A DNA stretch of 47,945 bases from a virus (taxonomy: Duplodnaviria > Caudoviricetes): IMG/VR virus record IMGVR_UViG_3300045580_000402, positions 1-47,945 of that record; one strand, written 5' to 3'. Within the stretch, counting starts at the first letter, position 1, and each line of letters opens with the position of its first letter. Position numbers and translations under genes: made by a program. Below the pieces are notes generated by a model. That model was not told where the DNA came from. It searched no databases and saw nothing but the letters and a program-made list of their open reading frames with translations. Below, piece after piece: positions 13,139 to 47,945 of the stretch.

Positions 13139-14050
13139 TTATTTCAGCCTCAAAACCCTGCTCGTCGATTCACGCCGGAACGCCGACGCAATGTCCGGAT
13201 GCGCGGACTCCAGCGACTTCACGTCGAGCCGCCGGGCGGTCTGCGCCTTGAACGTCGCGAGCACCTGTCCGCGGTGCGTCAACGTGGCGTGCTCGGCGAA
13301 CGCGACCCGAAGCCGATCGTCGAGGAGCGCCGCCCGCTCCTCCAACTCCTTGATCTCGGCCTTGACCGCCTTCAGCTTGGCGACGGTCTCCGCGAGCTCG
13401 TCGTCGGCCTCGACCGACGTGCCGTTGTCGCGAGCCCACAGCAGCAGGGCGTCCGCGGCCGTCGTCGGCACAGGCGGAGTCTCAGTGAGCACGTGTGAGT
13501 GCCAGAACTCCCGCTCGGCCTCGATCAGATCGGCAATGAAACCGTCGTCGCGCTCCACAGCGAAGATGCGGAAGTCCTGGCCACCAATCAGCACCGGAAC
13601 GTACGCGATCTTCGCTCCCGTCACGGCCATGTAGTGGGCGACCTGCGTGTGGTAGTACACCGGGATGTCGGACGATCCGTCCTCGCCCCAGCCGTCGGCA
13701 GTCCGCGCGGTCTTGGCCTCCACAATCGCGAGCTCGTCCTCGATCAGCCCGTCGAGCGACGCCAGCATGAATGGATGCTCATCGCTCGTCTGGATCGGGA
13801 GCCCGCGGCGTACCTCGTAGCCAGTCCGGCGAGTGAACTCGTCCAACACGATCGGCTCCAGCAATGTGCCGAATCGCATCGCATCCGTCTCGGGTCGATC
13901 GTCCGCGAGACCGCGCTTGTCGAGCCACACGTCGACCGCCGTGCGCCATCGGGACAGCCCGAGAATCGCCGCAACGTCGCTTCCGCCGATGCCCTTACGA
14001 CGCTCAGCCAGCCACGCGTCGCGTGTCGTGTTCTGCACCAGACCGTTCAT
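13139..14050 (-). CDS. YqaJ-like viral recombinase exonuclease
   Basis: WLAERRKGIGGSDVAAILG, FMLASLDG, EAKT, YHTQVAHYMAVTG. Confidence 0.95.
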   Translation of the reverse strand: MNGLVQNTTRDAWLAERRKGIGGSDVAAILGLSRWRTAVDVWLDKRGLADDRPETDAMRFGTLLEPIVLDEFTRRTGYEVRRGLPIQTSDEHPFMLASLDGLIEDELAIVEAKTARTADGWGEDGSSDIPVYYHTQVAHYMAVTGAKIAYVPVLIGGQDFRIFAVERDDGFIADLIEAEREFWHSHVLTETPPVPTTAADALLLWARDNGTSVEADDELAETVAKLKAVKAEIKELEERAALLDDRLRVAFAEHATLTHRGQVLATFKAQTARRLDVKSLESAHPDIASAFRRESTSRVLRLK

Positions 14051-14484
14051 GTCGCCGTACTCCGTGTGAACTGTTCGAGACGATCGGCCATTGCGAGGAG
14101 CTGCTGCCCGTGATCGCGGATGTGGTCAATCGCTTCGCCGGACGTCATCCACATGTCGAAGCGAAGCAGGGCACGCGCCAAAATCTCACGCGCGTCGTCC
14201 ATCAGCCGCAGGCGGCCAACGTGCCCGGCTTGCCCGTCTCGCACAGGCTCGTCGCTCCTCGGCGGATCGCCCCTCCTCGACAGGGAATAGCCGGCGTTCA
14301 ACCTCGCCTGCTCCGCGTCGATCCTCCGCTGCACTTCCGCCCGGTTGACGCTGCAATCCGATGGGGCGTCGATACCGATGCGGACCTTGTCGGACCGCAG
14401 CTCCACGACCGCGATCCCGATCGTGACCGGGCGCGACGCACGCACCACGATTTCCTCGTCTTTTTTTCGGCTTAAAACCAGCAT
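14047..14484 (-). CDS. csrA: CsrA/RsmA-like carbon storage regulator with C-terminal extension
   Basis: MLVLSRKKDEEIVV...VVELRSDKVRIGIDAPSDCSVNRAEV. Confidence 0.85.
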   Translation of the reverse strand: MLVLSRKKDEEIVVRASRPVTIGIAVVELRSDKVRIGIDAPSDCSVNRAEVQRRIDAEQARLNAGYSLSRRGDPPRSDEPVRDGQAGHVGRLRLMDDAREILARALLRFDMWMTSGEAIDHIRDHGQQLLAMADRLEQFTRSTAT

Positions 14485-14497
14485 GTTCCGCCCCCGC

Positions 14498-14752
14498 TCA
14501 GCCACCGTGCTTTGCGGGGTTGTCCTCCTGTTGACGCCCATTCGCTCCGTCCGACGCGGCTCCGCCTGCGTCGTGAAGAATCTCTGCGATACCGACGAGC
14601 TCGCCTCCGCGATCCGTCTGCTGCCGCGCGAACAACTCCGCGGCCCCCGCGTCTCGGAAGAACATGGACTGCCGGCACCGCTGTCCTCCGGAGATGCCGA
14701 TCCAGGTCACCCGATGCGTGACGCGAGGGCCGCAGCGAGTCTCTCGCGTTAC
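14498..14752 (-). CDS. Hypothetical protein
   Basis: GTG start overlapping the upstream stop. Confidence 0.5.
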   Translation of the reverse strand, partial: VTRETRCGPRVTHRVTWIGISGGQRCRQSMFFRDAGAAELFARQQTDRGGELVGIAEILHDAGGAASDGANGRQQEDNPAKHGG

Positions 14753-19110: not shown

Positions 19111-19261
19111 TTGAGTTGAATGGAGCGGAGTAATCTCCCCCACACAGGGGAAGACTCCTCTGCCACACGGACGCCTCCACTCTAGTTCGCACGGATGCCA
19201 ATCGCAACCTAGTGTCTTAGTGGGGCCACCCCCCCGCGAGACCAACACGAGGCATCCAACC

Positions 19262-20368
19262 ATGACGCTCACGGACCTGTTTGAGAACGAATACCGTTCG
19301 ATCCGCCACCTATCCCCAAAGGCCATCAGCTGCTATCAGGTGTCGCTCCGGCACATCGACCGGCACATGGCATTGCAGCCTGGCCGGGAGCCTGGGCCGG
19401 CCCGTCTCGACGACCTGAGCGATCTCGCTCTGTCGCGGTTCGTGGCCGAGCGAGAGCGCAATACGTGCAGGGCAACGGCGAAGCGGGATCGGACGCAGAT
19501 CCTCTGCCTCTGGCGCTACGCTTGCCGATGCGGGTATCTGACGCGGTGGCCGAACCCGACACCCCTGCGCGTGCCCGTGCGCGTGCCACGTGCCACACGT
19601 GCCGACGAGCTCGAGCGACTGCTCGCCTACTTCGCCGGCATCAATGGTACGATCGATGGTGTGCCGGCCGGCGTGTGGTGGGGCTCACTCATCACGGCTC
19701 TGTTCCAATGCGGAACGCGCATCGGCGAGACGCTCGCGGTCGAGTGGCCGTGCGTGAACGTGGCTGAGCGGACGATCCTGTTCAAGGCTGAAACCCGCAA
19801 GGGCCAGACCCGCGACATCGTCCGCGACATCACAGACGAGCTGGCCGGAAACCTGGCGTCGCGGGCGCGGCAGAGCGGACGCGTCTGGAAATGGGACCGG
19901 TCGGCAACCCACCTGTGGGCGCACTTCCGCGATCACTGCACGAAGGCGGAGGTGCCGTACCTTGGATTCCACGCGATCCGCAAGGCAGCATGCAGTTATA
20001 CGAAGGCCGCCGGCGGGGACGCGACCAAGCTGGCGGATCACGCCGACGTTGCGACGACGGAGGTGTACATCGATCCCACGATCGCACCGCCCGAAAGCAA
20101 TCTGGCGAGGCTCCCGCTGCTGAGACAGCTGCGGCGTGAATCACTGGAGCCCGTGGAGCCGCCGTCGCGCGAGGAGGATGCCATGCGGGCCGGGCACACT
20201 GTCGGACGCGTGATCGGCCGCGTCGGGCTCCCACGGCCGAGCCGAGAGGAAGCCGACGACCTGGCGAAGGAGCACGGCCACGCCGGAGCGATGGCCCAGT
20301 GGTTCCGGGACGGGCTGACATCCGGATGGTGGGCGGCGACAAGGCATCGCGAGGCAGCCGCCGGGTGA
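19262..20368 (+). CDS. int: Tyrosine integrase
   Basis: Catalytic R (GTRIGE), K (TRKG), HxxR (HAIR), H (ADH) and Y (TEVY). Confidence 0.92.
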   Translation: MTLTDLFENEYRSIRHLSPKAISCYQVSLRHIDRHMALQPGREPGPARLDDLSDLALSRFVAERERNTCRATAKRDRTQILCLWRYACRCGYLTRWPNPTPLRVPVRVPRATRADELERLLAYFAGINGTIDGVPAGVWWGSLITALFQCGTRIGETLAVEWPCVNVAERTILFKAETRKGQTRDIVRDITDELAGNLASRARQSGRVWKWDRSATHLWAHFRDHCTKAEVPYLGFHAIRKAACSYTKAAGGDATKLADHADVATTEVYIDPTIAPPESNLARLPLLRQLRRESLEPVEPPSREEDAMRAGHTVGRVIGRVGLPRPSREEADDLAKEHGHAGAMAQWFRDGLTSGWWAATRHREAAAG

Positions 20369-29657: not shown

Positions 29658-32204
29658 TCAGTAGCCCAGTGCAAACGGGTAGGTGTCGTCACCGCCGGAG
29701 GTGTTGTCAGCGATCTGCTCCAACGCGGCGAGCTGCCGGTGCTGCACGTCGCCGCCTTGGCCACGCATCAGCCGAAACATCTCCGACACGCCTTCGCTCG
29801 AGCGGCTGTCGATGCCCTTGAGTGCCTCATTGATGGAGGCAATCTCGACGGTCTTCTCGATCTCGATTGGTTCCTGCTTGGCGGTGTCAACTGCCGCTGC
29901 CGATTGGCGGGCAGCATCGCGGGCGGTTTGGACAGCCGACGTGAACGGCCTCGCGATCGCCTGCCCCGCCTGCTCGGCGTCACCGAACAATGCGGTTCCA
30001 AAACCTTCCTTTGCCGCGGTCAGGTTCTGGTTGATGCCATTTTGCAGTTCGTCGTTGAACCCCTTCGCCGCTGCCACCACCACGTCGAGCGAGGCGGTGT
30101 CGAACCCGAGGTACTGGCCGATCTGCTGGGCAATGGTTGCCAGCGTCTCAAACGACCCCGTAATGCCGAGGATCACCAGCCGGAAGCCAGCCGCCGCGGT
30201 GTTGAACACGCCACTCAGAAACGCGCCCACACGATTCAGCACGTCTCCCACCGCCGACCACTGTGCCCCGATCTGCGAAAAGTATTCAAACGTGCTGCCG
30301 AAGTTGGCGACCAGCCAATCGGCCACGCCGGCAAGGTACTCGGCCCCTGCCAGGATGCCTTCGCCGATCATCGCGCCGATGTTCGCCCCGCCGATGTCGC
30401 CGATGAACGTGTTGAACTGCTCTACCACGCCCGTGATGGCTGGCGACAGGTACGCCGTCACCTGCTGCACGACGCCTTGGATGGCGTTCTGGGCCGTCTC
30501 AAACGACGACACCATCTTCTGCACGTCCTGCCCTTGGGCGTTGGTGAGCGACAGCCCGAGGCGGTCGGCTTCCTCCCTCGCTCGCGCGATGCCCTCGGCC
30601 CCACCGGCAAACAGTGGCAAGAGGTCGGCACCGGAACGGCCGAAGATCTGCGTGGCGGCCGCCGCCCGCTCGGCCTCGGTGGGCAACGCGGCGATGGACT
30701 TGGCGATCTCCTGGAACCGATCCGCCGTGCCCATGCCGTTGAGCTGGGCCGCCGACAGGCCGATCCGGTCGAACGCCGCCGCGGCCGACGCCGATCCGTT
30801 TGCCGCATTGACGAACGCCACGTCGGCCTTGGTCATCGCGTCCTTCATGGACTCCATCGACACGCCGTTCTTCTCGGCGGCGAGCGATAGCCCCGCCATC
30901 TCCCCGTAGGTCACGTTGAGGCGGGCGGCGAGCTTGCTCGTCTGGTCGATGACGCCGGCCTCGGCCGCCCCCATACGGACGAACGACGAGACAGTGTTGG
31001 ACACCGTCGAGGCGATGGAGCCGAAGAGGCGGGCCACGTCGAGGCCGATGAGGATGTTGAGCCGCGACGAGATTCCGGCAAGGCCACTCGACATGTCCGA
31101 TGCCGCGGTGCCCGACTTCCGCATCTCGGCGGCGGCGGCGGACACGGCCCGGCTGAACGTCTCCTGCGAGATGGCCCCCCGGGACAGCAGGTCGCGAAGG
31201 TCCGCCACGCGGGCGGAATACTGCTCCTGGGCAGTCATGTTGCCACGGGTGACTGCCGCGCCACGCTGGTGTGCCGCCGCAAGGTCACTCAGGGCGGCGG
31301 ATGCCGCAGCGGCCGAACCGTCAGCCTCGGCAAGGATTTGATTCTGCCGCTCCACCGCAGCGGCATAGGCCGTCGCGGAAATGGCACCAGCGTTTTGCAG
31401 GACGTCGAGTTCTTCGATGGCGGCAGCGTGCACTTGTGCCGCGGATGCCACGCTGCGTTCGATCTCGGCACCGCGGGCCACCAGCGCCAGCCGCTGCTCC
31501 TCGGCAATGCGAGCGATGTCGGATGCGACGGCCTGCTGGGCAAGAGCCTCTTCGACGCCGGTCGTCGCCGCAATGAATGAGTCGGATGCCGTCACCGAAG
31601 CAGCGAACGCATCGGCGATCCCTGCAACTGGGTTGGCGTCTGCCGCACCGCCGAGGTTTCCGACGACCCCACCCAGACGCGACAGCGCATCCGCCTGGGT
31701 GTCGATAGCCTCCGTCGCCCGCAGATACGTCGCCAAGGCAGCCTCGCGGGCACGGGCCGCCACCTCCTCAGCCAGCCCGCCGTTGCGGACGGCATTGGCA
31801 ACGCGGTCAAGGGTGGCGAAATAGTCCTGCTCGGCGGTCGTGTTCTCCCGCGTGATTGCCGCAGCCTCGGACGCGGCCTGCGCCATTTGCCTGGCCTCGG
31901 CGGTGAGCGCGGACATGCGGGCGGCGAACTGCTCGGCACTGGCCGAGCCGGAGCGGAAGTTGACGACGAGCGCCTCGACCGAGGCCGATATCCCGTCGAA
32001 CGCGGCCCGCGCCGTGCCGGCCACCGGGCCGATCTCGAGAAACCCCTGCTTGCTGATGTTGTTCAGGGCCGCAAGCGACGATCGCAGCGTGGCGGTGTCG
32101 CCGCCCAGGGCCTTGAACGCCTTGCCCGCGGCATCGACGCCGGACGTCAGCCCGCCGACCGATGACAAGAACTTTACGTTGACCACGCCGATCTGGGACA
32201 TCAC
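29658..32204 (-). CDS. Tape measure protein
   Basis: 848 aa, Ala-rich and helical, IFGRSGADLLPL, follows the chaperones. Confidence 0.92.
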   Translation of the reverse strand: MMSQIGVVNVKFLSSVGGLTSGVDAAGKAFKALGGDTATLRSSLAALNNISKQGFLEIGPVAGTARAAFDGISASVEALVVNFRSGSASAEQFAARMSALTAEARQMAQAASEAAAITRENTTAEQDYFATLDRVANAVRNGGLAEEVAARAREAALATYLRATEAIDTQADALSRLGGVVGNLGGAADANPVAGIADAFAASVTASDSFIAATTGVEEALAQQAVASDIARIAEEQRLALVARGAEIERSVASAAQVHAAAIEELDVLQNAGAISATAYAAAVERQNQILAEADGSAAAASAALSDLAAAHQRGAAVTRGNMTAQEQYSARVADLRDLLSRGAISQETFSRAVSAAAAEMRKSGTAASDMSSGLAGISSRLNILIGLDVARLFGSIASTVSNTVSSFVRMGAAEAGVIDQTSKLAARLNVTYGEMAGLSLAAEKNGVSMESMKDAMTKADVAFVNAANGSASAAAAFDRIGLSAAQLNGMGTADRFQEIAKSIAALPTEAERAAAATQIFGRSGADLLPLFAGGAEGIARAREEADRLGLSLTNAQGQDVQKMVSSFETAQNAIQGVVQQVTAYLSPAITGVVEQFNTFIGDIGGANIGAMIGEGILAGAEYLAGVADWLVANFGSTFEYFSQIGAQWSAVGDVLNRVGAFLSGVFNTAAAGFRLVILGITGSFETLATIAQQIGQYLGFDTASLDVVVAAAKGFNDELQNGINQNLTAAKEGFGTALFGDAEQAGQAIARPFTSAVQTARDAARQSAAAVDTAKQEPIEIEKTVEIASINEALKGIDSRSSEGVSEMFRLMRGQGGDVQHRQLAALEQIADNTSGGDDTYPFALGY

Positions 32205-32527
32205 TCACTCCGCATGCGCCGCGAGAACTTTGTCAGCTCCGCGTTGATTTCGTCCTCGGTCATCGGGCGGTTGGGATCGTAGTTGGGCAGGAACTTTTCG
32301 ATGAACGACTCGTCAACGGACTGCCCCAGGGCACGCAGCACGAACAGCGTCTGCACGGCGGTCCTCGTCCAATCGTCTCCAAACGGTTCGACTTGCCAGA
32401 ACGCATACCACGTGAGGATTTGCCGCAAGGACACGCGACGCATCCACCCTTCCACGTCGTCAATGCGATGGTGGGCAGCCAGCCGGTAGATGAATCGCTC
32501 CATCAAGCCGGACTGGCTTCTCAGTTT
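32201..32527 (-). CDS. Tail assembly chaperone, -1 frameshift extension (gpT-like)
   Basis: WYAFWQVEPFG motif; reached via A AAA AAC. Confidence 0.8.
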   Translation of the reverse strand, partial: KLRSQSGLMERFIYRLAAHHRIDDVEGWMRRVSLRQILTWYAFWQVEPFGDDWTRTAVQTLFVLRALGQSVDESFIEKFLPNYDPNRPMTEDEINAELTKFSRRMRSE

Positions 32528-32871
32528 TTTTCGATGTCTCCGATGGTCTGAACGTCCACCTTCAGGACCGTGTCCCAGCACTTCTTGTAGAGCCAGAGCA
32601 CGGGGGCCGGCTGAGCCTTGGCGAGCATCGAGCGCAGCGTTCCGTCGTCGATCGGCTGGCCGTCTTCATTGACGAGGCACGCGGCGACGCACTTGGTGAT
32701 GAACGACGCATCGGGCGTCTTGCCTTCGAACGCCTGGAGCCCCTGGACGAGCTCCACCCACGTGCCGACCGCAGGCGATCCGAGATAGGACGGCTTGCTC
32801 GCTCCTGGGGGCGTGACGGTGATGATGCCCTTGGCGACGTCGCCAAAAACGGTCTGTTCTGTGATTGCCAT
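32521..32871 (-). CDS. Tail assembly chaperone (gpG-like)
   Basis: Ends GAA AAA AAC TGA (IEKN*), upstream of the tape measure. Confidence 0.85.
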   Translation of the reverse strand: MAITEQTVFGDVAKGIITVTPPGASKPSYLGSPAVGTWVELVQGLQAFEGKTPDASFITKCVAACLVNEDGQPIDDGTLRSMLAKAQPAPVLWLYKKCWDTVLKVDVQTIGDIEKN

Positions 32872-33272
32872 TACGAGGTACTCCATCCTGTGCCAGAGAA
32901 CTTGAACTGGGCCGTTCCCACGAGGTATTCGCCGACGCTGCCAGTCACATCAAAGTCTTCGAGGTACGAGTCGATGGACAGCGAGCCGCCATCCCACGCG
33001 ACGCCCAATCCTGCGTTGTGCCCGATGTCGAACGGGGCAAACGGCGGGCAGCCGAACATGCGGATCGTGACGCCACCGGGCGTGATGGACGAGCAGAAAA
33101 ACTGCTTGACCACGCGGGCCTGACTCCCGCTTCCGATGACCGTGGATCCGACATGTGTCCATTCCTCAAAGTTCGCGGTACCGGGCTGGAGCCGCCATGA
33201 GGTAAGCCGTCCAAGAGCGACTCCGCCGAACGACACGACGGACCCTTGCGACGTGGGCGTGTAGCCAGGCAT
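32871..33272 (-). CDS. Tail tube-like protein 3
   Basis: SQGSVVSFGG...SVGEYLVGTAQFKFSG. Confidence 0.65.
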   Translation of the reverse strand: MPGYTPTSQGSVVSFGGVALGRLTSWRLQPGTANFEEWTHVGSTVIGSGSQARVVKQFFCSSITPGGVTIRMFGCPPFAPFDIGHNAGLGVAWDGGSLSIDSYLEDFDVTGSVGEYLVGTAQFKFSGTGWSTS

Positions 33273-38295: not shown

Positions 38296-38956
38296 GAATG
38301 AGCCTCGACAGCTCTGCCTGCTTCTTGCGGAATCGAGACATGTCAGGCCGCTTGCGGACCTCACGTACCTCGCGGTCAAACGATCGCTGGAGGAGCTGGA
38401 GATCGCCTTCGCCGTACGCCGGGAACGTGCACGGGCCGACATCCAGGATCATCTGGGCTCGATAGATCGTCTTCACGCTGCGGCCCTGGGCGTCCTTCGA
38501 CCACGCGTAATCGCCCTTCTGCTTCCCGGGCTTGTAGAGGAACGACGATCCGCGCACGATCCCGGCCTCGATGTTCGTCATCAGATCGCGGGCGTACGTC
38601 GTGTCTTCCAGCGGGTGCTCGTAGTACAGGCCATAGTCGTCCTGCAGGAGCTTGAGCGACGTCGGGTAGGCAGCCAGCGGCATGTCGTCGTTGTGGTTCC
38701 ACAGTGCCTTGCACATGAGCGACCGCTTGCCCTCGTTGGCCTCGTCGACCATCCAAAACGCCCCCGGGGCGATCCGCTCGATATACGGGCCAACGGCCCC
38801 GTCAAGCGTGTCGACGTTGAACGGCACGGCATACGCGCAGAGGTACACCTTCTCGACGCCGTCGATTGATCGCTTCTCCAGCCGGAGGAGCTTCTTGATG
38901 TCCTCTTTCGTGTGCTCGAAATTGAAGAACCGCCGCTGAAATCCGTGGTCGTTCAT
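38285..38956 (-). CDS. HK97-family prohead protease (S78)
   Basis: YAVPFN, ERIAPGAF, ALWNH, GSSF, DVGPCTFPAY. Confidence 0.93.
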   Translation of the reverse strand: MNDHGFQRRFFNFEHTKEDIKKLLRLEKRSIDGVEKVYLCAYAVPFNVDTLDGAVGPYIERIAPGAFWMVDEANEGKRSLMCKALWNHNDDMPLAAYPTSLKLLQDDYGLYYEHPLEDTTYARDLMTNIEAGIVRGSSFLYKPGKQKGDYAWSKDAQGRSVKTIYRAQMILDVGPCTFPAYGEGDLQLLQRSFDREVREVRKRPDMSRFRKKQAELSRLIRGR

Positions 38957-40704
38957 GTGTTTTCCTCCTGGCTGTCGGTCGGCGGCTGGTCGCCATCAGT
39001 CGGCTGTTCCGGTGGCTGCTCCGGTGGCTGCTCCGCTTGCTGGTCGGTCACCGTAGACAGGGCATTCGCTTGCGGAGCATCTTCCGCTCCAGGAGTGGGT
39101 TCCGGCCCGGGCGTCGGCGAGGGAAGGCCCATAGGCGCTGAAACCGCGTCCACGGTCCTGATCTTCACGCCCCCGACCATCGCATCGACCAGCCCGGCAT
39201 CGAGCTGCGGGAACGCAACTGCCAGCACCGCGCGGGCTCCGTCGTGTGTCAGCTTGCCATCGGCCACGTCGTCGATGACCTGCAGCAGCACGCTCACCTG
39301 CGGCGCTTCCGGCTGCGCCCCGGGCACGGCCCCCTCGATGATGCCGACCACTTCCTCGTCAGAAAGCATCGGGTTCTGCACCGCCAGAAGCACTCGGGCC
39401 GCGGCAGGCGAGATACCGCCCGAGGCAAGGCGGTCGAGCACCGGCTCGATGTTTTCGGGCTTCGCTGCCTCGCGCCGTGCCATGCGCTCCAGGGTCGTGT
39501 AATTCTCGGGCACGAGGTGGATGTCGCCGCCAGGGACAGGGTTGCGCCCCTCTCGCGCACGCGACTCGTTGACCGCGTTGATGCCCCACTGCACCCCCTT
39601 GGTCTCGTAGTCCATGCGGGACGCACCGTCACCCCGCTCAAGCTCGTCGAGCTGGAAGCGGACGAAGTGCGTGGACTGGTCGAGAACCAAGCTGCGGGCG
39701 AACGCGTGCTCCAGACGAGTGCACCGCGGGGCGATGCAGTGGTTGCGGAAGTCGATCGCGCCCTGCTCGACAGTGGCGTACTTGAGGTTGCTGAACAGCT
39801 GCACCATGTGCGGGGGCACCCGCATGATCGAGCAGACCCGCCCGGCCTCGAACTCCAGGGCCTCTGTGAACTGCGACTCCTGGTTGGTCGCGGCCCCGAA
39901 TTCCTTGGCCTTCACGCCCCCGTCGAGGATGGCGGTCCGGTGAGCGTTTTCTGGCCCCCGGTGGATGCGCTCCCATGATTCCCGGAGGGCCTCGCACGTG
40001 TCGTCGTCGAGCTCGGCATCGGACTCTAGCACAACGCCGGGCCGGGCTCCGTTGCTGAAAAAACGGCTGGCGTGCCTCTCCATCGCGCGGCACAGCGCGA
40101 TCGTGTCTCGCCCGAGATCGAGCAGGGGCTGCCCCTTGCGCTCCCCGAAACGATTCGTCACCGGCATGAAGTGCATCCAGAACATATCGTCCTGGCCGTA
40201 CGTGCCGGTGCTGCCGTCGTCGTGAATCACCTCGAATGCAAGCTCGCCGTTGCGCATGGGCACGCACCGCACCTGCGTCGGGTGCAGGGGATCGAGCCCG
40301 ACGATCGTTCCGCCCGGACCCTGGATCAGCAGCGAGTAGCACTCGCCCCACAGCTCGAAGTTGACGAGCGTTCGCTCCAGCCACTCAACCTTGGATAGCG
40401 ACGGATGGATCGAGGAGGACAGCAGCGTGTCGAGCCACCCGGGCTCCAAGACGGAGCCGCCGCCGGGAGTTCTGCGATAGTGATGCAGGCCGACGGTTGC
40501 GATCGTCTCCGTGACCACGCGGGCGCAGGAAAAAAATGCGGCCGTCCGCATGGCCGTTCGCTCGCTGACGCGCACGCCGGCGGAGATTGTTCCGCCCGAG
40601 TCCGGATCGCCGTCGTCGAGCCAGCGCATGGTCTCCGGGCTGTACGAACGGCTCACGAGCGAGCGGACACGCGGGGTCGAAATGAGGCGGCCTTGGGAGA
40701 TCAT
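38953..40704 (-). CDS. HK97-family portal protein with C-terminal extension
   Basis: FFSNGARPG, AILDGG, RVPPHMV, NESRAREGRNPVPGGD. Confidence 0.95.
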   Translation of the reverse strand: MISQGRLISTPRVRSLVSRSYSPETMRWLDDGDPDSGGTISAGVRVSERTAMRTAAFFSCARVVTETIATVGLHHYRRTPGGGSVLEPGWLDTLLSSSIHPSLSKVEWLERTLVNFELWGECYSLLIQGPGGTIVGLDPLHPTQVRCVPMRNGELAFEVIHDDGSTGTYGQDDMFWMHFMPVTNRFGERKGQPLLDLGRDTIALCRAMERHASRFFSNGARPGVVLESDAELDDDTCEALRESWERIHRGPENAHRTAILDGGVKAKEFGAATNQESQFTEALEFEAGRVCSIMRVPPHMVQLFSNLKYATVEQGAIDFRNHCIAPRCTRLEHAFARSLVLDQSTHFVRFQLDELERGDGASRMDYETKGVQWGINAVNESRAREGRNPVPGGDIHLVPENYTTLERMARREAAKPENIEPVLDRLASGGISPAAARVLLAVQNPMLSDEEVVGIIEGAVPGAQPEAPQVSVLLQVIDDVADGKLTHDGARAVLAVAFPQLDAGLVDAMVGGVKIRTVDAVSAPMGLPSPTPGPEPTPGAEDAPQANALSTVTDQQAEQPPEQPPEQPTDGDQPPTDSQEENT

Positions 40705-42362
40705 CAGCGGCACCTGGGCTTCGGGCGTGGCTTGGGCTTTTCTTGGCCGCCGTGGATCCATGCTCCAAGGGCCATGCAGAGGGCGAGAATCCCGTCAACG
40801 CGGGCCGGGGACTTCGGCGCGGGCTTGAGCGGACGGATCAATCCGTCGGCACTCGTGCGGATCGCGACGTTGTTCGCCTGCCAGTCGAGTGCCGGTGAGT
40901 TGTGCCGCAGCCGCTTGTTGGCGATGAGCGTCTCGAGCAGGCGGCACGGGGCGTTCATGCCCGCAAACCCCTGCTGGTACCGATTGACCTCGATTCCTCC
41001 AGCGTCAAGCTGGTTCGTGATGTGCGTCGCGTTGTGGGGGTCGATGGCTACCATCCGCAACACGTGCCTCTTGGACATCGCTTCGATGTCGCGCCGAATG
41101 AACTCGTAGTCCGTCACGCCGCCCTGTGTCTTCACGACGTGGCCAGCCTTCACCCATTCTGTGTATGGAGCCCCATCTCGTCGCTCGTGCGCGGCCAGCA
41201 GATCCTCCGCCAGATAGATCCGCGAAACGATGTCGAAGCTTGTTTCTCCCGCGGAATCCAGGTACGGAAAGATCGCGACGACAGCGGTCGTGTCCTCTGA
41301 CCACGCCAAATCGACGCCGACCCAGCACTCGTGACCGTCGAGTGAATGCGGTGGATTACCCCGGCATGCAGCCCACGCGTCCGGCTTGATCCAGCGGGAA
41401 TCCTGCTGCGTCCAGATGTTGAGCCGGTAACGCAAGAACTCGTTGAGCTTCGTCGGCTCGGAATCGGCCTCGCGTGCCTCGGCCGCGAAGTCTTCCTCCG
41501 AAAAGGTGACGCCGAACGACGGATTGGCCTTCCGCCAGGTGTCGGGAGACCGCCAGTCGTCCTCGGGCGTCGCGGCCCGGATGAACGGGAAAAAAGTTGG
41601 GTCAACCTTCCAGTCGGCGAGAACACGTTCGGCATATTTCCGCTGCTCGAAGCAGATCGAGTTGCGGTCCACGCCGGCGGTCGTGATCGCGAGGAGCATG
41701 GGCTGATCCCGCGCGGCGCCGCCGTAGCGAAGGGCCGACCACAGGCGGCGATTCCGCTGGGCGTGCAGCTCGTCGAACAAAAGGCCGTGGATGTTCAGTC
41801 CCTCGGCGAGCCGCGCGTCGGCAGAAATGACGCGGTAGAACGAGCTCGTCGCCTGGTACGTGATCGTCCTGGACGACGGCACCGGCTTCAGGTGAACGCC
41901 GAGCGCGTTGGATAGCGTGATGCACCGCACGGCCTCGTCGAACACGAGCGCCGCCTGTTTCCGGTCCGCGGCCGCCGAGTACACCTGAGCGCCAAACTCG
42001 CCGTCCGCGCAGAGGAGATAGAGCCCGATCCCTGCAAGCAGTGTCGATTTTCCGTGTGCGTCTTGGCCCCCGCAGCGTCACGCCGCGAGGGCCAAGACGC
42101 CGTTTTTTTTGGGCACCTCGATGTAGCCGATGCGGTACCTTCGGAAGCCGTTGTCGACACGCCGCCACCCGAACAGCTCCTCGACGATTTCGACGCGCTG
42201 CCACTCCTGCAGCTCGAACGGCTTGCCGGCCCACTTGCCGATCGAGTGCCGCAGAAACGTCGGAAAGAACTCGCACGCGTGATCCGCTGCGGCCTGGTCG
42301 AAATAGAAGTCGATCCCGCACTCAAGAGCTGCGTCGCGCGACAAACGCTGCAAGTGGGTCAT
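40704..42362 (-). CDS. terL: Terminase large subunit, interrupted in Walker A by a 48-nt hairpin insert carrying an in-frame UGA (42078-42080)
   Basis: N-part ...YIEVPKKNG and C-part KSTLLAG...FDELH...ITTAG...GVDL...RVDG are in the same frame. Confidence 0.93.
42058..42100 (-). other. 20-bp RNA stem with UGA triloop inside terL
   Basis: GCGUCUUGGCCCUCGCGGCG-UGA-CGCUGCGGGGGCCAAGACGC. Confidence 0.9.
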
Positions 42363-42807
42363 TTGGCACCTTGGGGGACGTCTGAATCTCCGACCGGCTC
42401 GCGGGCGTAAACCCAAATTCCCGCTCGACGCGGAGCATCTGCTCGTCGAGCTTCGCGAGCATGGTGGCCGCGGGCGTGATCTGCATGTACCGCACGCGAC
42501 CGGACTCCTCGCGCATCACAAGCACGTCCAGGCCTCGGCGCACCTGGTCGAGATACTTGTGATACCGCTCGTACATCACGCAGTAGCGGGCGACCGTGTC
42601 GATGTCCGCATTGGTCATCAGGCTCATGTCGACGAGCTTCTTGACGACCTCGTGCCACTTTTCGAGCGACACTCCCTGCAGATACGAGGGCGGCTCGATC
42701 GCGTCCGCAGGTGGCTGCGGCTCGCCCTCGTTGAGCGGACGATGCCCGGGGTTTCCCCGCAGAATGCGGAGAGCCGTCGGCTGCGGAGGAGGGCCTCGCC
42801 TACCCAT
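42322..42807 (-). CDS. terS: Terminase small subunit, P27 family
   Basis: RGPPPQPT...GNPG...EFGFTPASRS. Confidence 0.93.
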   Translation of the reverse strand: MGRRGPPPQPTALRILRGNPGHRPLNEGEPQPPADAIEPPSYLQGVSLEKWHEVVKKLVDMSLMTNADIDTVARYCVMYERYHKYLDQVRRGLDVLVMREESGRVRYMQITPAATMLAKLDEQMLRVEREFGFTPASRSEIQTSPKVPNDPLAAFVARRSS

Positions 42808-44029
42808 GCGATTGCACCTGGTCGCCGTCCGCGAGGACGGCCTTCTTACCCGTGAGCGCCTCCCACCGCTTCACCACGACGTCGCAATACGCCGGAGACA
42901 GCTCGATCCCGCGGCACTTTCGCCCGAGCTGCTCGGCCGCGATGAGCGTGGTGCCCGATCCGAGGAATCCATCGAATACAACCCCGTCCAGCGCACTGCT
43001 GTTGCGGAGGAGGTAGGCGATGAGAGCCACGGGCTTCATCGTGGGGTGATCCCCGTTAACAGACGGGCGATCGAACTCGAGTACGGTCGTTTGCGAACGG
43101 TCGGAGTGCCACTCGTGCGCCGCCCCTTCCTTCCAGCCGTATAGGCATGGCTCGTGCTTCCACTGGTAGTCCTGCCGGCCGAGCACCAGGCGGTCCTTCA
43201 CCCAGATGAGGCACTGCCGGACCCGCTCGCCACAGTCGTGGACGGCCCCACGGAAGTTGAGGCCCTCGGAATCGGCATGCCAGATGTAGAAGGCGCCGCC
43301 CGGCTTCAGGGCTGCGAAGGCAGCCTCGAAGGCCGCACGAAGGAACGACCGGAACTCTGCGTTCGGCATGGAGTCGTTCTCGATCGTGAGGGCGTCCTTC
43401 GTGCGGCCGACGTAGGCGACGTTGTAGGGTGGGTCGGTCATCCAGATGTGGGCGAGCTCGCCGGCCATCACCCGCGCAACGTCGCCGGCCTGGGTGGCGT
43501 CACCGCACAGGACGCGGTGCTCTCCGAGCATCCACAGGTCGCCCGGCTTCGTGACAGGATCGGCCGGTGGCTCCGGAACCTCGTCTTCCACGACCGCATC
43601 CTGGCCGCCGGCATCCACGCCCCACTCCGCGGACAGGTCGTCGTACATTCCGCGCAGGGCGTCGTCGTCAGTCGCCACATCACGCAGCAGGGATTCGAGC
43701 GCCTCGGCATTGGCCTCCGCCATCGCGGCCAGGGGGTCGAGGGAGAGCAGCAGCTTGTCGGCCTCCGCCTCGGTGAGATCGAGGACCAGCACGGGCACCT
43801 CAATGTCCGGGGTCGTCTCGGCCCGCAGGTGGCCGTCCACGAGCTGGAGCCGGCCGTCCGGCAGCTCCCGGGCCAGGAGCGCGTCCGCATAGCCGATCTC
43901 AGCCAGGATCCCCCGCAGCGCGGCCGCCTGCTTCTCGGGGTGCGCCCGCCAGTTCCGCGGGTGCGGCACCAGGTCGCTCGCACGCACTCTGGCGAGCCTC
44001 AGGACACGGTTTCGCACGGCGGTGGTCAT
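42800..44029 (-). CDS. ParB-N plus N6/N4 DNA methyltransferase
   Basis: HPRNWRAH, VDGHLR; TDPPYN, HPTMKP, DGFLGSGTT. Confidence 0.95.
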   Translation of the reverse strand: MTTAVRNRVLRLARVRASDLVPHPRNWRAHPEKQAAALRGILAEIGYADALLARELPDGRLQLVDGHLRAETTPDIEVPVLVLDLTEAEADKLLLSLDPLAAMAEANAEALESLLRDVATDDDALRGMYDDLSAEWGVDAGGQDAVVEDEVPEPPADPVTKPGDLWMLGEHRVLCGDATQAGDVARVMAGELAHIWMTDPPYNVAYVGRTKDALTIENDSMPNAEFRSFLRAAFEAAFAALKPGGAFYIWHADSEGLNFRGAVHDCGERVRQCLIWVKDRLVLGRQDYQWKHEPCLYGWKEGAAHEWHSDRSQTTVLEFDRPSVNGDHPTMKPVALIAYLLRNSSALDGVVFDGFLGSGTTLIAAEQLGRKCRGIELSPAYCDVVVKRWEALTGKKAVLADGDQVQSHG

Positions 44030-44925
44030 GTCGAACCCCCCCCTCCGAAAACCTGCGGGCGCCCCTCTGCGGCAAGCGGGTGGTTTGTAATCTGGGGGTC
44101 CTCTGAACATCTGGAGGGGGCCTGGGGGGCATGGGATGTCTCATCCTCCATCCTGTCAGACTTGATCGCGTTGCACCGAGAGCAGGCACACCGCACGTTG
44201 TGCCAGTCGTGATCACCACCCTTGCTCAGTGGTATGGGATGGTGGTCGATCGTTGGAGACCGCGGGTCATCATGGCGATACTCCTCGCTTGTCTGCTGGC
44301 CGCATATGTGGCAGAAGAAGCCGTCCCTCTTGAACACAGCGAGGCGTGTGACTGCCGGATTGAAACGGCCTCCGTAGGTTCGGCACCGACGCCTGTGGTT
44401 TCCAACCAGCCTTCTCGTCCTCCGCCGGCACTCTCTTCTGGCAACGAGAGCAGCATCTTTCTTGCACGCCTCACAGCACGCCCGTGCAACAGGAGCCGCG
44501 TTCAGAACCGTCTCTCCGCACGCGAAACACTGTCGCTCCTTCCGTTCGGCAAACGAACATTCGCGAGAGCAATACGATGCCCTGCGTCCACGCAGCCCAG
44601 ATGTGCTGAAGGACCGTGAGCATCGCTTGCAGAACGCTATGGGAGTTGGTGGCAAATGCCTTCCGTGAAGCCGATCCCACTGATGCATCCAGTTTCCGAT
44701 GCTAGCCGCCAACTCTGCGCCTCCACCGGCCGCATCTCGCTTCTTTTGAGCAGCAATTGCCATGGCTTTCTTGGCATCGAAATAGCACTGCCTGCTGCAA
44801 TAGAGGCACCGCTCGCCGTTGGCCGCTCGCGCTGGAGACGGCTTCTTCCGAGTGAACTCATTCCCACATTGTCGGCATTGGTAGCACGCCTTGGGCGAGC
44901 CAGCCGATGGGCTAAGAGACACCAT
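44026..44925 (-). CDS. HNH endonuclease with multiple zinc fingers
   Basis: CSRQC/CSREC repeats; RDGFFCHICG...TIDHHPIPLSKGG...NVRCACSRCN. Confidence 0.88.
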   Translation of the reverse strand: MVSLSPSAGSPKACYQCRQCGNEFTRKKPSPARAANGERCLYCSRQCYFDAKKAMAIAAQKKRDAAGGGAELAASIGNWMHQWDRLHGRHLPPTPIAFCKRCSRSFSTSGLRGRRASYCSRECSFAERKERQCFACGETVLNAAPVARACCEACKKDAALVARRECRRRTRRLVGNHRRRCRTYGGRFNPAVTRLAVFKRDGFFCHICGQQTSEEYRHDDPRSPTIDHHPIPLSKGGDHDWHNVRCACSRCNAIKSDRMEDETSHAPQAPSRCSEDPQITNHPLAAEGRPQVFGGGGST

Positions 44926-45259
44926 ACCCAGCCCCCTTTCCGTCGCTGTTCTCGCGCACCGTCTTCCTGCTGTGGCACTTCGCACACCGGCAACGTCCAT
45001 TGCTCACGTCGTACCTGCTGCATCCGTTCTCGCAGTAGTCCGTGCCCGGCACGATGGGCGAGTTGTGGTCGGCGTGAGCCTCTCGCTTGTCGGTGCAGAC
45101 GCGGCCGCAATCCACGCACGTCCAGGAGTAGAGCCTGAGGACCGCGAGCCTGAACTCACGATGCCGCCGATCCGTGTACCCGCGGTTGGCCGCGCTGGGT
45201 CGGCTCGGTCGGCGACACTTGCCATGTGACCACGGCACTCGCCTCGGCATCAGTAGCAC
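44912..45259 (-). CDS. Packaging-associated HNH endonuclease (HK97 gp74-like)
   Basis: RGY...FRLAVL...CVDCG...ADH...CAKCHSRKT. Confidence 0.85.
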   Translation of the reverse strand: MLLMPRRVPWSHGKCRRPSRPSAANRGYTDRRHREFRLAVLRLYSWTCVDCGRVCTDKREAHADHNSPIVPGTDYCENGCSRYDVSNGRCRCAKCHSRKTVRENSDGKGAGYGVS

Positions 45260-45625: not shown

Positions 45626-45700
45626 TAGCAGCGGCTGGACTCGAACCAGCGGTCTTCGGCTTATGAGGCCGACGAGGACTCCAGGCTCCTCCACGCTGCG
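45626..45700 (-). tRNA. tRNA-Met(CAT), initiator-like, no encoded CCA
   Basis: Cloverleaf CGCAGCG/CGCTGCT, D stem GAGG/CCTC, anticodon arm TCGGC-CTCATAA-GCCGA, T arm GCTGG-TTCGAGT-CCAGC. Confidence 0.92.
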
Positions 45701-45820: not shown

Positions 45821-46243
45821 TCAGCGGCGAATCGCACCACCCAGCGACGGAGCCACGCCGGGAGCGAGCGTCCCGCCGCCCGACGGGGCTGCGGTGGGCG
45901 AGAGCGTGGGCGAGGACGCAGGGGCGGTAGGCTCTGGCGGATCGGGTGGCAGCAACGCGACGGCATCCGCCCAAGGCAGCACCTCCACCGCAGCGTTCAG
46001 CACCGCCTTATCCGCCGCTTCCCACATAGCGTGGAGCAGCCCGCCGGGTTCGATCTCGGTCAGCACATCCGCCGACAGCATTAGTCGCCCATCAACCAGC
46101 ACTCGCGGCACAGGGCGGCACTTGTTACTCCCATGCAGGCCATGCAACTCCGCGAGCCTGCCCGCGAGTTGCGGCGTGAACACCAGCGCGTACTGGCGTG
46201 CTGATTCGTAGCTGATCGGCAGAGTGAGATCGCCAAGCGTCAT
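45821..46243 (-). CDS. Hypothetical protein, possible tail fibre chaperone
   Basis: ATGA-coupled to the repeat protein; DGRLMLSADVLTE. Confidence 0.65.
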   Translation of the reverse strand: MTLGDLTLPISYESARQYALVFTPQLAGRLAELHGLHGSNKCRPVPRVLVDGRLMLSADVLTEIEPGGLLHAMWEAADKAVLNAAVEVLPWADAVALLPPDPPEPTAPASSPTLSPTAAPSGGGTLAPGVAPSLGGAIRR

Positions 46244-47766
46244 GGGATGGCCGCTCCGATGGCAGTGTAGAGCGTGTCAACTCGCGTCCGAAGCAGCGAG
46301 AGGTCAAGATGCTCGCCAATACTGTAAAACGCAATTCGCGCGTTCGATGGAGTGTCGTTTATCCGATTAAATATCCACAGATTCCCAGCCGCAGGCGTAG
46401 TGGTCGAAGCGGAAATAGTGCCTGATCCTGCGTTGACTCTCCACCCGAACGACGCCGCAAGACTTCGCGAGCATCCAATGAAACCAGTTTCCGTAGTGTA
46501 ATTATTCAGAGAACTACTGGACTGGTTTAAACGGAACCCAAGCTGCGTTGTTGACGCCACAATTTGCGAGTTGCCGACGCCGCTCGCGTTGTTTGTCCCG
46601 ATATACGACGGCCCGCCGCTACTCAACAAAGCGGTGGCGTAAACAGCCATGTGCTTGCTGTCCTGCGGGTCGGCGTTGTTGTTCCGGTTGCTATCCAGAT
46701 ATTTTGTTGATCCATTGCCGATCAGGCCCGTCTTCCGGTTGTAATCGCCGCTAACGAAATTGACGTTCGTCGGTGCCGACCCGACCAGCGGCGTCAACGC
46801 ACCGGATAGCGTGCGAGCGCCCATGAGGATGCAACTGGCCTTGATGGCCGACCAGATGCCATCCGCCTTGCAGCCGGTGATGAAGGCGTTGATTGCATCG
46901 CGGACGCCGGTTTCAAGTATCGCCCCGTCAGCGGCTTCAACTGCGTTGATGTAGGCGTTTACGTCGGCGTCGGCGTAGGTGGGGGCTAGTGCCGCTCCGA
47001 TGGAAGCGTAGAGCGTGTCAACGCGCGTCCGAAGCAGCGAGAGGTCAAGATGCTCGCCAATGCTGTAAAACGCGATTCTGGCAAGGGCTGGAGAAAAACC
47101 AAAACGACCAAGCACCCACAAATTGGCGGAAGCTGGCGCCGCAGAGGTATTCGACAAGGTTCCATTGCCTGCGTTCACTCGCCACCCAAATGAAGCGGAA
47201 AGGTTTCTTGAACACCCAATGAAACCGTTTTCGTTTTGGTAGTTGCTATTGGTGCCACTGGTCGAATTGACTCTTAAGCCAAGCTGATTGGTCAGTGCGG
47301 CAATACTGGAAGTGCCGCCAGCATTGGAGTTGCTCATTCCGAAGTAAGCCACCCCAGAAGCGGTGTCTGAGATTCTCTGGCTTGCATATACCGCCAGATG
47401 CTTGCTGTCCTGCGGGTCGGCGTTGTTGTTCCTGTTGCTATCCAGATATTTTGTTGATCCATCGCCAATCAGGCCCGTTTTGCGGCTGTAGTCGCCCGAG
47501 AGGAATGGCCCGTTATTCGTCGGGGCCACGCCGACCAGCGGCGTCAACGCGCCAGAGAGCGTGCGAGCGCCAATGAGGACGCAGGACGCCTTGATGGCCG
47601 ACCAGATGTTGTCGGTCTTGCAGCCGGTGATGAAGTCGCGGATGGCGTCCTTGACGGCCTGCTCCAACGGCTGCCCGTCAGCGGCTTCGACGGCGGCGAT
47701 GTAGTTCTGAACGTCGGAGTCGCCGCCTGCGGCCCTGGGGCGAAGAAGTCGGGGCGACATCGGCAT
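46240..47766 (-). CDS. Virion fibre/lectin-like protein made of two tandem ~250-aa repeats
   Basis: MPMSPRLLRP leader; duplicated DV..YI.AVEAADG...IKASC...ARIAFYSIGEHLDL units. Confidence 0.75.
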   Translation of the reverse strand: MPMSPRLLRPRAAGGDSDVQNYIAAVEAADGQPLEQAVKDAIRDFITGCKTDNIWSAIKASCVLIGARTLSGALTPLVGVAPTNNGPFLSGDYSRKTGLIGDGSTKYLDSNRNNNADPQDSKHLAVYASQRISDTASGVAYFGMSNSNAGGTSSIAALTNQLGLRVNSTSGTNSNYQNENGFIGCSRNLSASFGWRVNAGNGTLSNTSAAPASANLWVLGRFGFSPALARIAFYSIGEHLDLSLLRTRVDTLYASIGAALAPTYADADVNAYINAVEAADGAILETGVRDAINAFITGCKADGIWSAIKASCILMGARTLSGALTPLVGSAPTNVNFVSGDYNRKTGLIGNGSTKYLDSNRNNNADPQDSKHMAVYATALLSSGGPSYIGTNNASGVGNSQIVASTTQLGFRLNQSSSSLNNYTTETGFIGCSRSLAASFGWRVNAGSGTISASTTTPAAGNLWIFNRINDTPSNARIAFYSIGEHLDLSLLRTRVDTLYTAIGAAIP

Positions 47767-47811
47767 AGTGCGCTACTCGCTGTGACTCTACAGTAAGGGA
47801 TGTGGGGACGG

Positions 47812-47945
47812 TCAGACGACACGCCACCGGCTATCGGTCGCGTCGTAGACCAGGAGCGCCGCGCCGCCGTTCGCGGCCATGACGTAATCCCCTGCCCACG
47901 GCACAACGAGCCGGTTCGCGGCGGCCGAGCTTGTCGATTGGTGTT
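47812..47945 (-). CDS. C-terminus of a tail-fibre-like protein (partial)
   Basis: Translated by hand: ...HQSTSSAAANRLVVPWAGDYVMAANGGAALLVYDATDSRWRVV*. Confidence 0.6.
   Translation of the reverse strand, partial: HQSTSSAAANRLVVPWAGDYVMAANGGAALLVYDATDSRWRVV

Follow-up and report, generated by a model that had tools for sequence, protein, structure and literature searches.

Programmed translational bypassing has been established in T4 gene 60, in the homologues of that gene and in the byps of yeast mitochondria, and it is supported for the terminase of the Streptomyces phage Hau3 (PMC5009743; PMC10732093; bioRxiv 2022.08.31.505936). Bypassing over a hairpin is known from very few natural genes. 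In the gene 60 homologues, take-off and landing codons always match within wobble, and some clades show a one-codon shift (bioRxiv 2022.08.31.505936). The Hau3 terminase has gaps of 7–10 nt that are triggered by the rare codon UUA and have been proposed to be regulatory; its junction peptide was demonstrated by mass spectrometry in E. coli (PMC10732093). The g6/g7 break of Hau3 falls after KGWG and before KDP which, judged from the printed sequences, looks like a break in the Walker A loop. In its available text, bioRxiv 2024.12.09.627546 names only a two-site terminase candidate for bypassing. The byps of Magnusiomyces are mobile mitochondrial inserts of 27–55 nt with relaxed, two-of-three codon matches, and they depend on special mitochondrial ribosomes and on an unused codon in the A site (PMC5009743; bioRxiv 2022.08.31.505936). 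In dnaX and HIV, a long hairpin downstream of purine-rich sequence can move out of the mRNA channel and obstruct the A site; these stem-loops stimulate −1 frameshifting, and the accessible text of the reports mentions no bypass (PMC7282821, PMC8861025). The hairpin cassette described here, which interrupts the large terminase gene (terL) of a phage, is most likely a new form of programmed translational bypassing.

The window, i.e., the whole stretch of DNA that was analysed, is the complete 47,945-base record of a freshwater phage (CheckV, 100% complete). Its tyrosine integrase (19220–20368, plus strand) makes a temperate lifestyle likely. The terS, terL, portal, protease and capsid genes are all encoded on the minus strand, to which the other gene coordinates of the window given below also refer. 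The terS gene (42322–42807, Terminase_4) overlaps the start of terL, of which the window has one copy. The 5' half of terL (42099–42362) extends for 88 codons from the ATG at 42362 to the predicted take-off glycine, ends in IEVPKKNG and matches PHROG terL profiles. The 3' half (40704–42050) comprises 448 codons from the Walker A lysine; it resumes with AAA at 42050, opens with KSTLL, contains ATPase and nuclease domains with intact motifs (Pfam TerL_ATPase and TerL_nuclease) and ends with the stop codon at 40704. The adjoining portal gene (38953–40761, 602 aa) encodes a C-terminal extension of ~200 residues past its Pfam domain. Ahead of the tape measure gene, two overlapping ORFs (32201–32886), the first of which ends GAA AAA AAC TGA at ~32531, have the usual layout of a tail assembly chaperone −1 frameshift, and the heptamer, A_AAA_AAC, is the one that precedes the gap in terL. 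Elsewhere, a CsrA-like protein and possible translational regulator (phrog_9500, 14047–14541) adjoins a RecE-like exonuclease, a tRNA-Met(CAT) gene (45626–45700) overlaps the start of a called ORF, and a 508-aa protein (46240–47945) contains two copies of a ~250-aa domain (phrog_17104; repeats 82–89% alike, spaced ~750 nt apart).

A first-pass annotation had described a 48-nt insert with a 20-bp stem and a 3-nt UGA loop in the Walker A motif of terL, and reading the minus strand confirmed it. The coding gap (42051–42098) consists of hairpin, linker and landing codon. Directly before it, the sequence reads CCC (a proline codon, 42111–42113), a run of eight A residues (AAA AAA AA, 42103–42110) and the predicted take-off codon, GGC (42099–42101), whose last two bases open the stem. 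Across nine genes of the window, AAA is used 10 times and AAG 135 times. The GC-rich RNA hairpin (42058–42100) pairs 42100–42081 with 42077–42058 over 20 bp, including two G-U pairs, and its loop is exactly the in-frame UGA (42078–42080). An unpaired linker (42054–42057) leads to the predicted landing codon, GGA (42051–42053). The first codon of the gap, GTC, is common in this phage. No other uninterrupted local stem in the window is as long on either strand (the next are 17 and 15 bp); the fold has a z score of −5.33, and none of 200 shuffles folded as well. The folding energy is −43.5 kcal/mol for the mRNA strand versus −35.0 kcal/mol for the opposite strand, in which there are two internal mismatches. 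The ACGG direct repeats reported at the ends of the insert are present in this phage; they are not a general rule, the exact repeat being 2–3 nt in 36 of 39 related cassettes. An antisense terminator was considered as the cause of the A8 run and hairpin and was rejected, since the G-U pairs are on the mRNA strand and a terminator scan did not list the site.

An assembly artefact is ruled out by a contig from a separate study and by recurrence of the cassette in many other contigs. The former (X4, depth 4) covers 41752–42102 with zero differences; it ends one base past the take-off codon, leaving the upstream side unbridged. In run X3, a single contig (depth 2.6) represents a near-identical strain with GGT as its landing codon and, just ahead of that, a second in-frame TGA. 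An RNA run (X19) gave no matching sequence. The relatives of this phage in run X3 have 21 changed coding codons, 19 of them silent.

The required product of terL is fixed by two members of the same 90% cluster, P0123 and P0130, which lack the gap. Both are uninterrupted proteins of 536 aa, equal to 88 plus 448, the lengths of the two terL halves. Identities to those halves are 87/88 and 436/448 for P0123 and 85/88 and 437/448 for P0130 (97% in both cases, with differences at 13–14 residues), and P0123 matches the HK97-type structure 6z6d. Each reads PKKNGKST at the join, the motif that removal of the insert had been predicted to restore. Among the 11 cluster members, eight are called as 426-aa proteins that start past the Walker A motif; one of these is this phage and the other seven were seen as protein only. 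The Walker A motif is uninterrupted in 110 of the best 120 homologues, the remaining 10 records being short or late-starting, and in 80 of 80 distant terL loci. Among cultured phages, the best TerL match is ~41% and none matched the hairpin.

Selection was estimated from close pairs, because values over all pairs (dN/dS 0.32–0.48) are inflated by saturation. For carriers of the cassette, dN/dS is 0.076 in the 3' half (57 of 820 pairs) and 0.092 in the 5' half (64 of 946), although the pairs are not independent. The insert-free values are 0.070 and 0.077 (33 of 406 and 38 of 561 pairs, respectively). A ratio of ~0.08 on both halves also holds within carrier-only clades. Nearly every complete 3' half has Walker B, motif III and the nuclease aspartate motif, and the pattern failed to recognise one Walker B variant. 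The claim that both halves look intact is thus borne out by the TerL model matches to each and by these ratios, on which both halves are under purifying selection and the gene works. Purifying selection and the predominance of silent changes mean that the gap must be skipped exactly, and we consider it very likely, from these sequence comparisons, that this happens during expression.

The cassette is not unique to this genome. By our own count across searches, it occurs on 54 distinct IMG/VR contigs, always at the same site in terL, and these represent 40 distinct cassettes, including that of this phage, with gaps of 39–51 nt in all three frames. Thirty-nine, again including this phage's, were analysed together; the 40th (L244) was found later. 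The sequences are related, and counts across cassettes overstate their independence. A pattern of EVPKKNG, any 35–65 bases and KST recovered 87 viral stretches. A hairpin insert is present in 46 of these; the other 41 are chance matches, and the ratio of 46 to 41 gives no prevalence. With patterns for the hairpin only, 35 of 35 and 53 of 55 matches fell at this terL site. The two outside terL (L249 and L284) have weaker stems and are probably chance matches. A search of metagenomes gave the cassette in 15 of 19 matches, some of them the same DNA, and a search of genomes gave three matches with one cassette, in a bacterial bin. An isoleucine variant of the pattern found it in five of six matches, and a variant with GAA for glutamate had no matches. 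Model R1 had no match in 83 other terL loci, and the ESM Atlas gave no host. One terL with one cassette was found in all five long records, three of which are 96–99% complete. A MITE or other scattered palindrome is rejected by the single site per genome, a repeat of only 2–4 nt, and the confinement of the hairpin-pattern matches to terL. None of the outcomes that the first-pass annotation gave as refuting (an artefact, an insert unique to this genome or a scattered MITE) was therefore observed. In a literature search that covered mainly open-access papers, we found no published account of a terL hairpin cassette family.

Gap lengths in the 39 cassettes are 46 nt (4 cassettes), 47 (13), 48 (9), 49 (3), 50 (6) and 51 (4), and the gap in L244 is 39 nt; the suggestion that length modulo 3 would be conserved does not hold. 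The stem is 17–20 bp, GC-rich and fills most of the gap, and pairing begins at gap base 1 in 37 of 39, among Gly-type and Asn-type cassettes alike. Its core comprises 542 Watson-Crick, 76 G-U, 2 A-C and 4 other cells. In the covariation analysis, 98.1% of cells are paired and both sides have changed in 7 of 18 pairs. This exceeds all six slid controls and all 500 shuffles, although the shuffle ignores relatedness. Same-site inserts with compensatory stem changes, the check proposed for the original observation, were therefore found. The sense RNA is the more stable strand in 39 of 39 cassettes, and as DNA the coding strand is the more stable in 35 of 39. Judged by 76 G-U against 2 A-C cells, the stem is selected on the mRNA strand, as had been proposed from its two imperfections in this phage. 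In 34 of 39, the take-off codon's third base is paired to the 3' side, and compensatory changes occur. The landing codon follows the partner of gap base 1 after an interval of 5–8 nt in 38 of 39 (48% A+U in the linker), and the linker is freely variable, each of its last three positions showing all four bases in Gly-type cassettes. L244 has a different geometry: in this shortest cassette (1538–1540 plus the next 39 bases, minus strand), which has GGC at both ends and a TAA loop, the landing codon comes directly after the stem. At Gly-type loci, the A-run is almost invariant (AAA for the first lysine in 41 of 41 and for the second in 39 of 41, versus 6 of 31 and 13 of 31 at insert-free loci), the preceding proline codon varies among loci, and Asn-type cassettes have no A8.

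The ends of the gap follow a simple rule. In 34 of 35 Gly-type cassettes, a GGN codon is repeated at take-off and landing (GG at take-off in 35 of 35 and at landing in 34 of 35). Four cassettes have the hairpin one codon earlier, after AAT; all four pair AAT with AAC, and the next glycine codon varies in all four. These Asn-type cassettes form one clade and amount to approximately one event, in which the linker is as invariant as AAC. The codon pair matches within wobble in 31 of 39 and at two of three bases in 7 of 39 (including GGC/GGA of this phage); one, L002, has a mismatch at base 1. Because L002 (one contig) has TGC at the landing position, it must be the upstream glycine that is decoded. 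The frame downstream is closed inside the gap in 22 of 39 cassettes and directly before the landing codon in two (L015 and L041), so resumption occurs no earlier than the landing codon. The exact repeats of 2–3 nt are too short for realignment of DNA or polymerase but are what re-pairing of a tRNA would lead one to expect. Repeated codons may also, in part, be relics of target duplication. Of the hop routes first put forward, GGC to GGA fits best; AAC to CAC was rejected because, of 35 Gly-type cassettes, 3 have CAC as the triplet ahead of the landing codon and none has AAY. Take-off at the alanine before the loop stop was also rejected: there is no conserved GCN landing codon, and the second stop of the X3 strain would be met.

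Programmed translational bypassing, from GGC to GGA in this phage, is probably the means by which the gap is skipped. Gene 60 has a dedicated nascent-peptide signal; in terL, the upstream peptide is ordinary TerL and is nearly the same in a carrier (L063) and a non-carrier (L049). In this mechanism, the ribosome would be slowed on the A-run, which may cause pausing or aid unthreading. The stem, starting one codon after take-off, would then fold in the A site, where it would take the role of a stop codon by preventing decoding. Peptidyl-tRNA-Gly would leave GGC (42101), pass the hairpin and re-pair at GGA (42053), and translation would resume at the Walker A lysine to give a 536-aa TerL, as in the insert-free alleles. 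A hairpin docked in the A site can keep tRNA out, and docking follows a purine-rich stretch when the hairpin is 11–12 nt from the P-site codon (PMC7282821); in this phage, that spacing is reached when the P site holds the first lysine. Ribosomes pause on successive AAA codons (PMC4363877). Both effects may apply to the terL gap. The hairpin is presumably passed while folded, since GGY triplets occur inside every Gly-type gap (one to five each) and, if the stem opened, a scanning tRNA would land too soon. A mini-Shine-Dalgarno (mini-SD) sequence lies 5–7 nt before landing in 17 of 39 cassettes and is absent in this phage.

A role of the loop stop as trigger is not supported: the gap is free of in-frame stops in 18 of 39 cassettes, and where one is present, it is 7–8 codons past take-off. 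All 13 cassettes with a length divisible by 3 have an in-frame stop in the loop, as do 8 of the other 26. On this distribution the loop stop looks like a guard: it would terminate ribosomes that unwind the stem and so protect against a P-loop with extra residues. The first codon of the gap is GTC in 23, GCC in 9 and another codon in 7 of 39. A stop-independent process, in which a self-contained hairpin of 40–50 nt is passed in its folded form by bacterial ribosomes and needs only a repeated flanking codon, is a more tentative proposal, to which we give a little less than an even chance.

A micro-intron, with the hairpin cut from the mRNA and the ends ligated by host enzymes, is the alternative that survives best, and we consider it unlikely. 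It would explain a stem selected on the RNA strand and an A site with neither a stop nor a rare codon, and imperfect codon matches, such as GGC/TGC in L002, would be harmless to cutting and joining. However, the cassettes share no junction sequence (GG or AA), and a linker of 5–8 nt and the geometry of L244 leave no fixed ruler from the stem. Both codon copies are conserved, whereas cut-and-join needs only two of the four G residues. RtcB and the PF09414 RNA ligase were each found in 0 of 5 phage genomes (this phage and four carriers), and no Rfam 15 family matched above its gathering score (the best reached 25.9 bits against a cut-off of 268). The gap is also far too short for group I or group II introns.

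Skipping by RNA polymerase is less probable again. The coding-strand hairpin would be extruded and the A-rich transcript end would realign downstream, which suits an A8 run that lies directly before the gap and moves with it, and a coding strand that folds better as DNA in most cassettes. Realignment needs base identity at the junction, whereas the exact repeat is 2–3 nt with freedom at the third codon base, and the A8 run is missing from Asn-type cassettes.

We give very little credence to a −1 frameshift at A_AAA_AAY, or readthrough of the stop, yielding a longer P-loop that works. A hairpin after A_AAA_AAC is a classic signal, and the heptamer recurs at the tail-chaperone overlap of this phage; among the 19 cassettes of 47 or 50 nt, 14 keep the −1 frame open through the gap, and some −1 frames end in the Walker A-like PRRQGKST. 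A single shift is nonetheless inapplicable to a 48-nt gap and impossible in 4 of the 26 out-of-frame cassettes. Readthrough of UGA, one of the options first offered, fails because those 26 of 39 gaps are out of frame and because the near-identical X3 strain has its second in-frame TGA. L015 and L053 differ by TGA/CGA before landing, and the homologues with an uninterrupted motif also speak against a longer P-loop.

Deletion of the hairpin from some DNA copies during lytic growth, these copies supplying TerL, is about as improbable. Palindromes are prone to deletion, the phage has a RecE-like exonuclease, and insert-free alleles exist. Contigs from three DNA runs (X1, X3 and X4) contain no joint that skips the gap, although contigs drop rare forms; the repeats are too short, P0123 and P0130 differ at enough residues to be other strains, and revertants should sweep. 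A dead or split terL, in a phage that is defective or borrows TerL from helpers, is the least credible reading and is largely refuted: the integrase and gene callers that give only a 426-aa ORF are in its favor, but that ORF lacks the Walker A GKST, this phage has no start codon between UGA and Lys, and the dN/dS values and silent changes in relatives indicate a working gene.

Bypassing of the cassette remains the preferred reading, and the cassette itself is mobile. Trees of 3' halves (FastTree, 70 rows; a quick IQ-TREE of 28 of those; rows with fewer than 250 codons of the 3' half excluded) intermix carriers and non-carriers, with at least five changes, and a single carrier clade is rejected (p-AU 1.5e-05, 28 rows). 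Cassettes 1 nt apart occur in TerL proteins that are 44–46% identical, and L244, whose TerL is 37% identical to P0123, has a stem that equals that of this phage at 31 of 33 bases. In L063, the 12 nt upstream match distant carriers at 12/12 and insert-free sisters at 8–10/12; the 9 nt downstream match at 8/9 and 4–7/9, respectively, and the wider flanks resemble the sisters. These comparisons show that the cassette moves horizontally with a short tract, apparently co-converted, of ~12 nt upstream (including the A-run) and 9 nt downstream. L104 suggests replacement of one cassette by another: its cassette is of the Gly type, with GGG at take-off and GGT at landing, yet on the tree it is nested among Asn-type genes. 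In L172 (4001–6218), the terL match is ~700 bases longer than in relatives, perhaps owing to an intein or intron.

A free-standing 324-aa HNH endonuclease (44026–45000; Pfam HNH, phrog_1271) is a candidate mobiliser of the cassette, though the link is weak. Of 25 carriers with 1.5 kb or more of upstream DNA, 3 (this phage, L136 and L159) have a large HNH gene there, as does 1 of 16 non-carriers (L050), in a survey that reached only 1.5–3 kb upstream. A search that had no positive control did not find it in any of five long carrier records. Between the HNH genes and terS is an N6/N4 DNA methylase (42800–44110), with a similar gene in L026 only among the carrier loci examined. By analogy with MobA, homing of the cassette is plausible. 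The cassette is likely a tolerated selfish insert, possibly one conferring immunity to a homing endonuclease.

These features can be set against the described systems. Like T4 gene 60 (50 nt) and its MobA-linked homologues, the terL cassette is a gap of ~50 nt in an essential phage gene with paired glycine codons; as in gene 60, the take-off codon lies in the stem's 5' side, a one-codon shift occurs and the element is horizontally mobile. Unlike gene 60, the host gene is terL and not a topoisomerase, and no sequence link was apparent. The terL cassettes also lack a stop or rare codon after take-off, have a 17–20-bp GC-rich stem that fills most of the gap, contain glycine triplets in their gaps, have a mini-SD in only some cases and have a 3' part that is not AU-rich. 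Eight of the 39 codon pairs fall outside wobble, and there is no constant endonuclease partner. Hau3 shares coding gaps in a sole terL; the cassette differs in its gaps of 39–51 nt and long hairpin and in showing no UUA or rare codon and no sign of regulation. The byps resemble it in size, mobility and relaxed matching, but they occupy many sites and genes, whereas terL has one cassette per record at one site and is translated by bacterial ribosomes. The dnaX and HIV stem-loops offer a precedent for a hairpin in the A site. MITEs and REP-like palindromes are short, palindromic, non-coding mobile inserts with a tiny flanking repeat; the terL cassette, by contrast, is present once per genome at one site in an essential gene, with a strand-asymmetric stem.

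A switch that doses or gates packaging, as first suggested, is unsupported: nothing points to regulation, and insert-free alleles that are 97% identical exist. In cassette-bearing genomes, gene callers truncate terL, a standard phage marker. The 40 natural variants keep the paired codons and drop the A-site stop, and so provide a test of whether the hairpin alone launches take-off; they also test whether ribosomes pass a hairpin in its folded state. Ready-made controls exist in the three frames, the presence or absence of the loop stop, the Gly and Asn types and the 97% identical alleles with and without the insert. If the stop-independent proposal is correct, the cassette would act as a "translational intron", able to move among terminase genes as little as 37–46% identical without harm, and it would represent a portable means of hiding sequence inside a reading frame.
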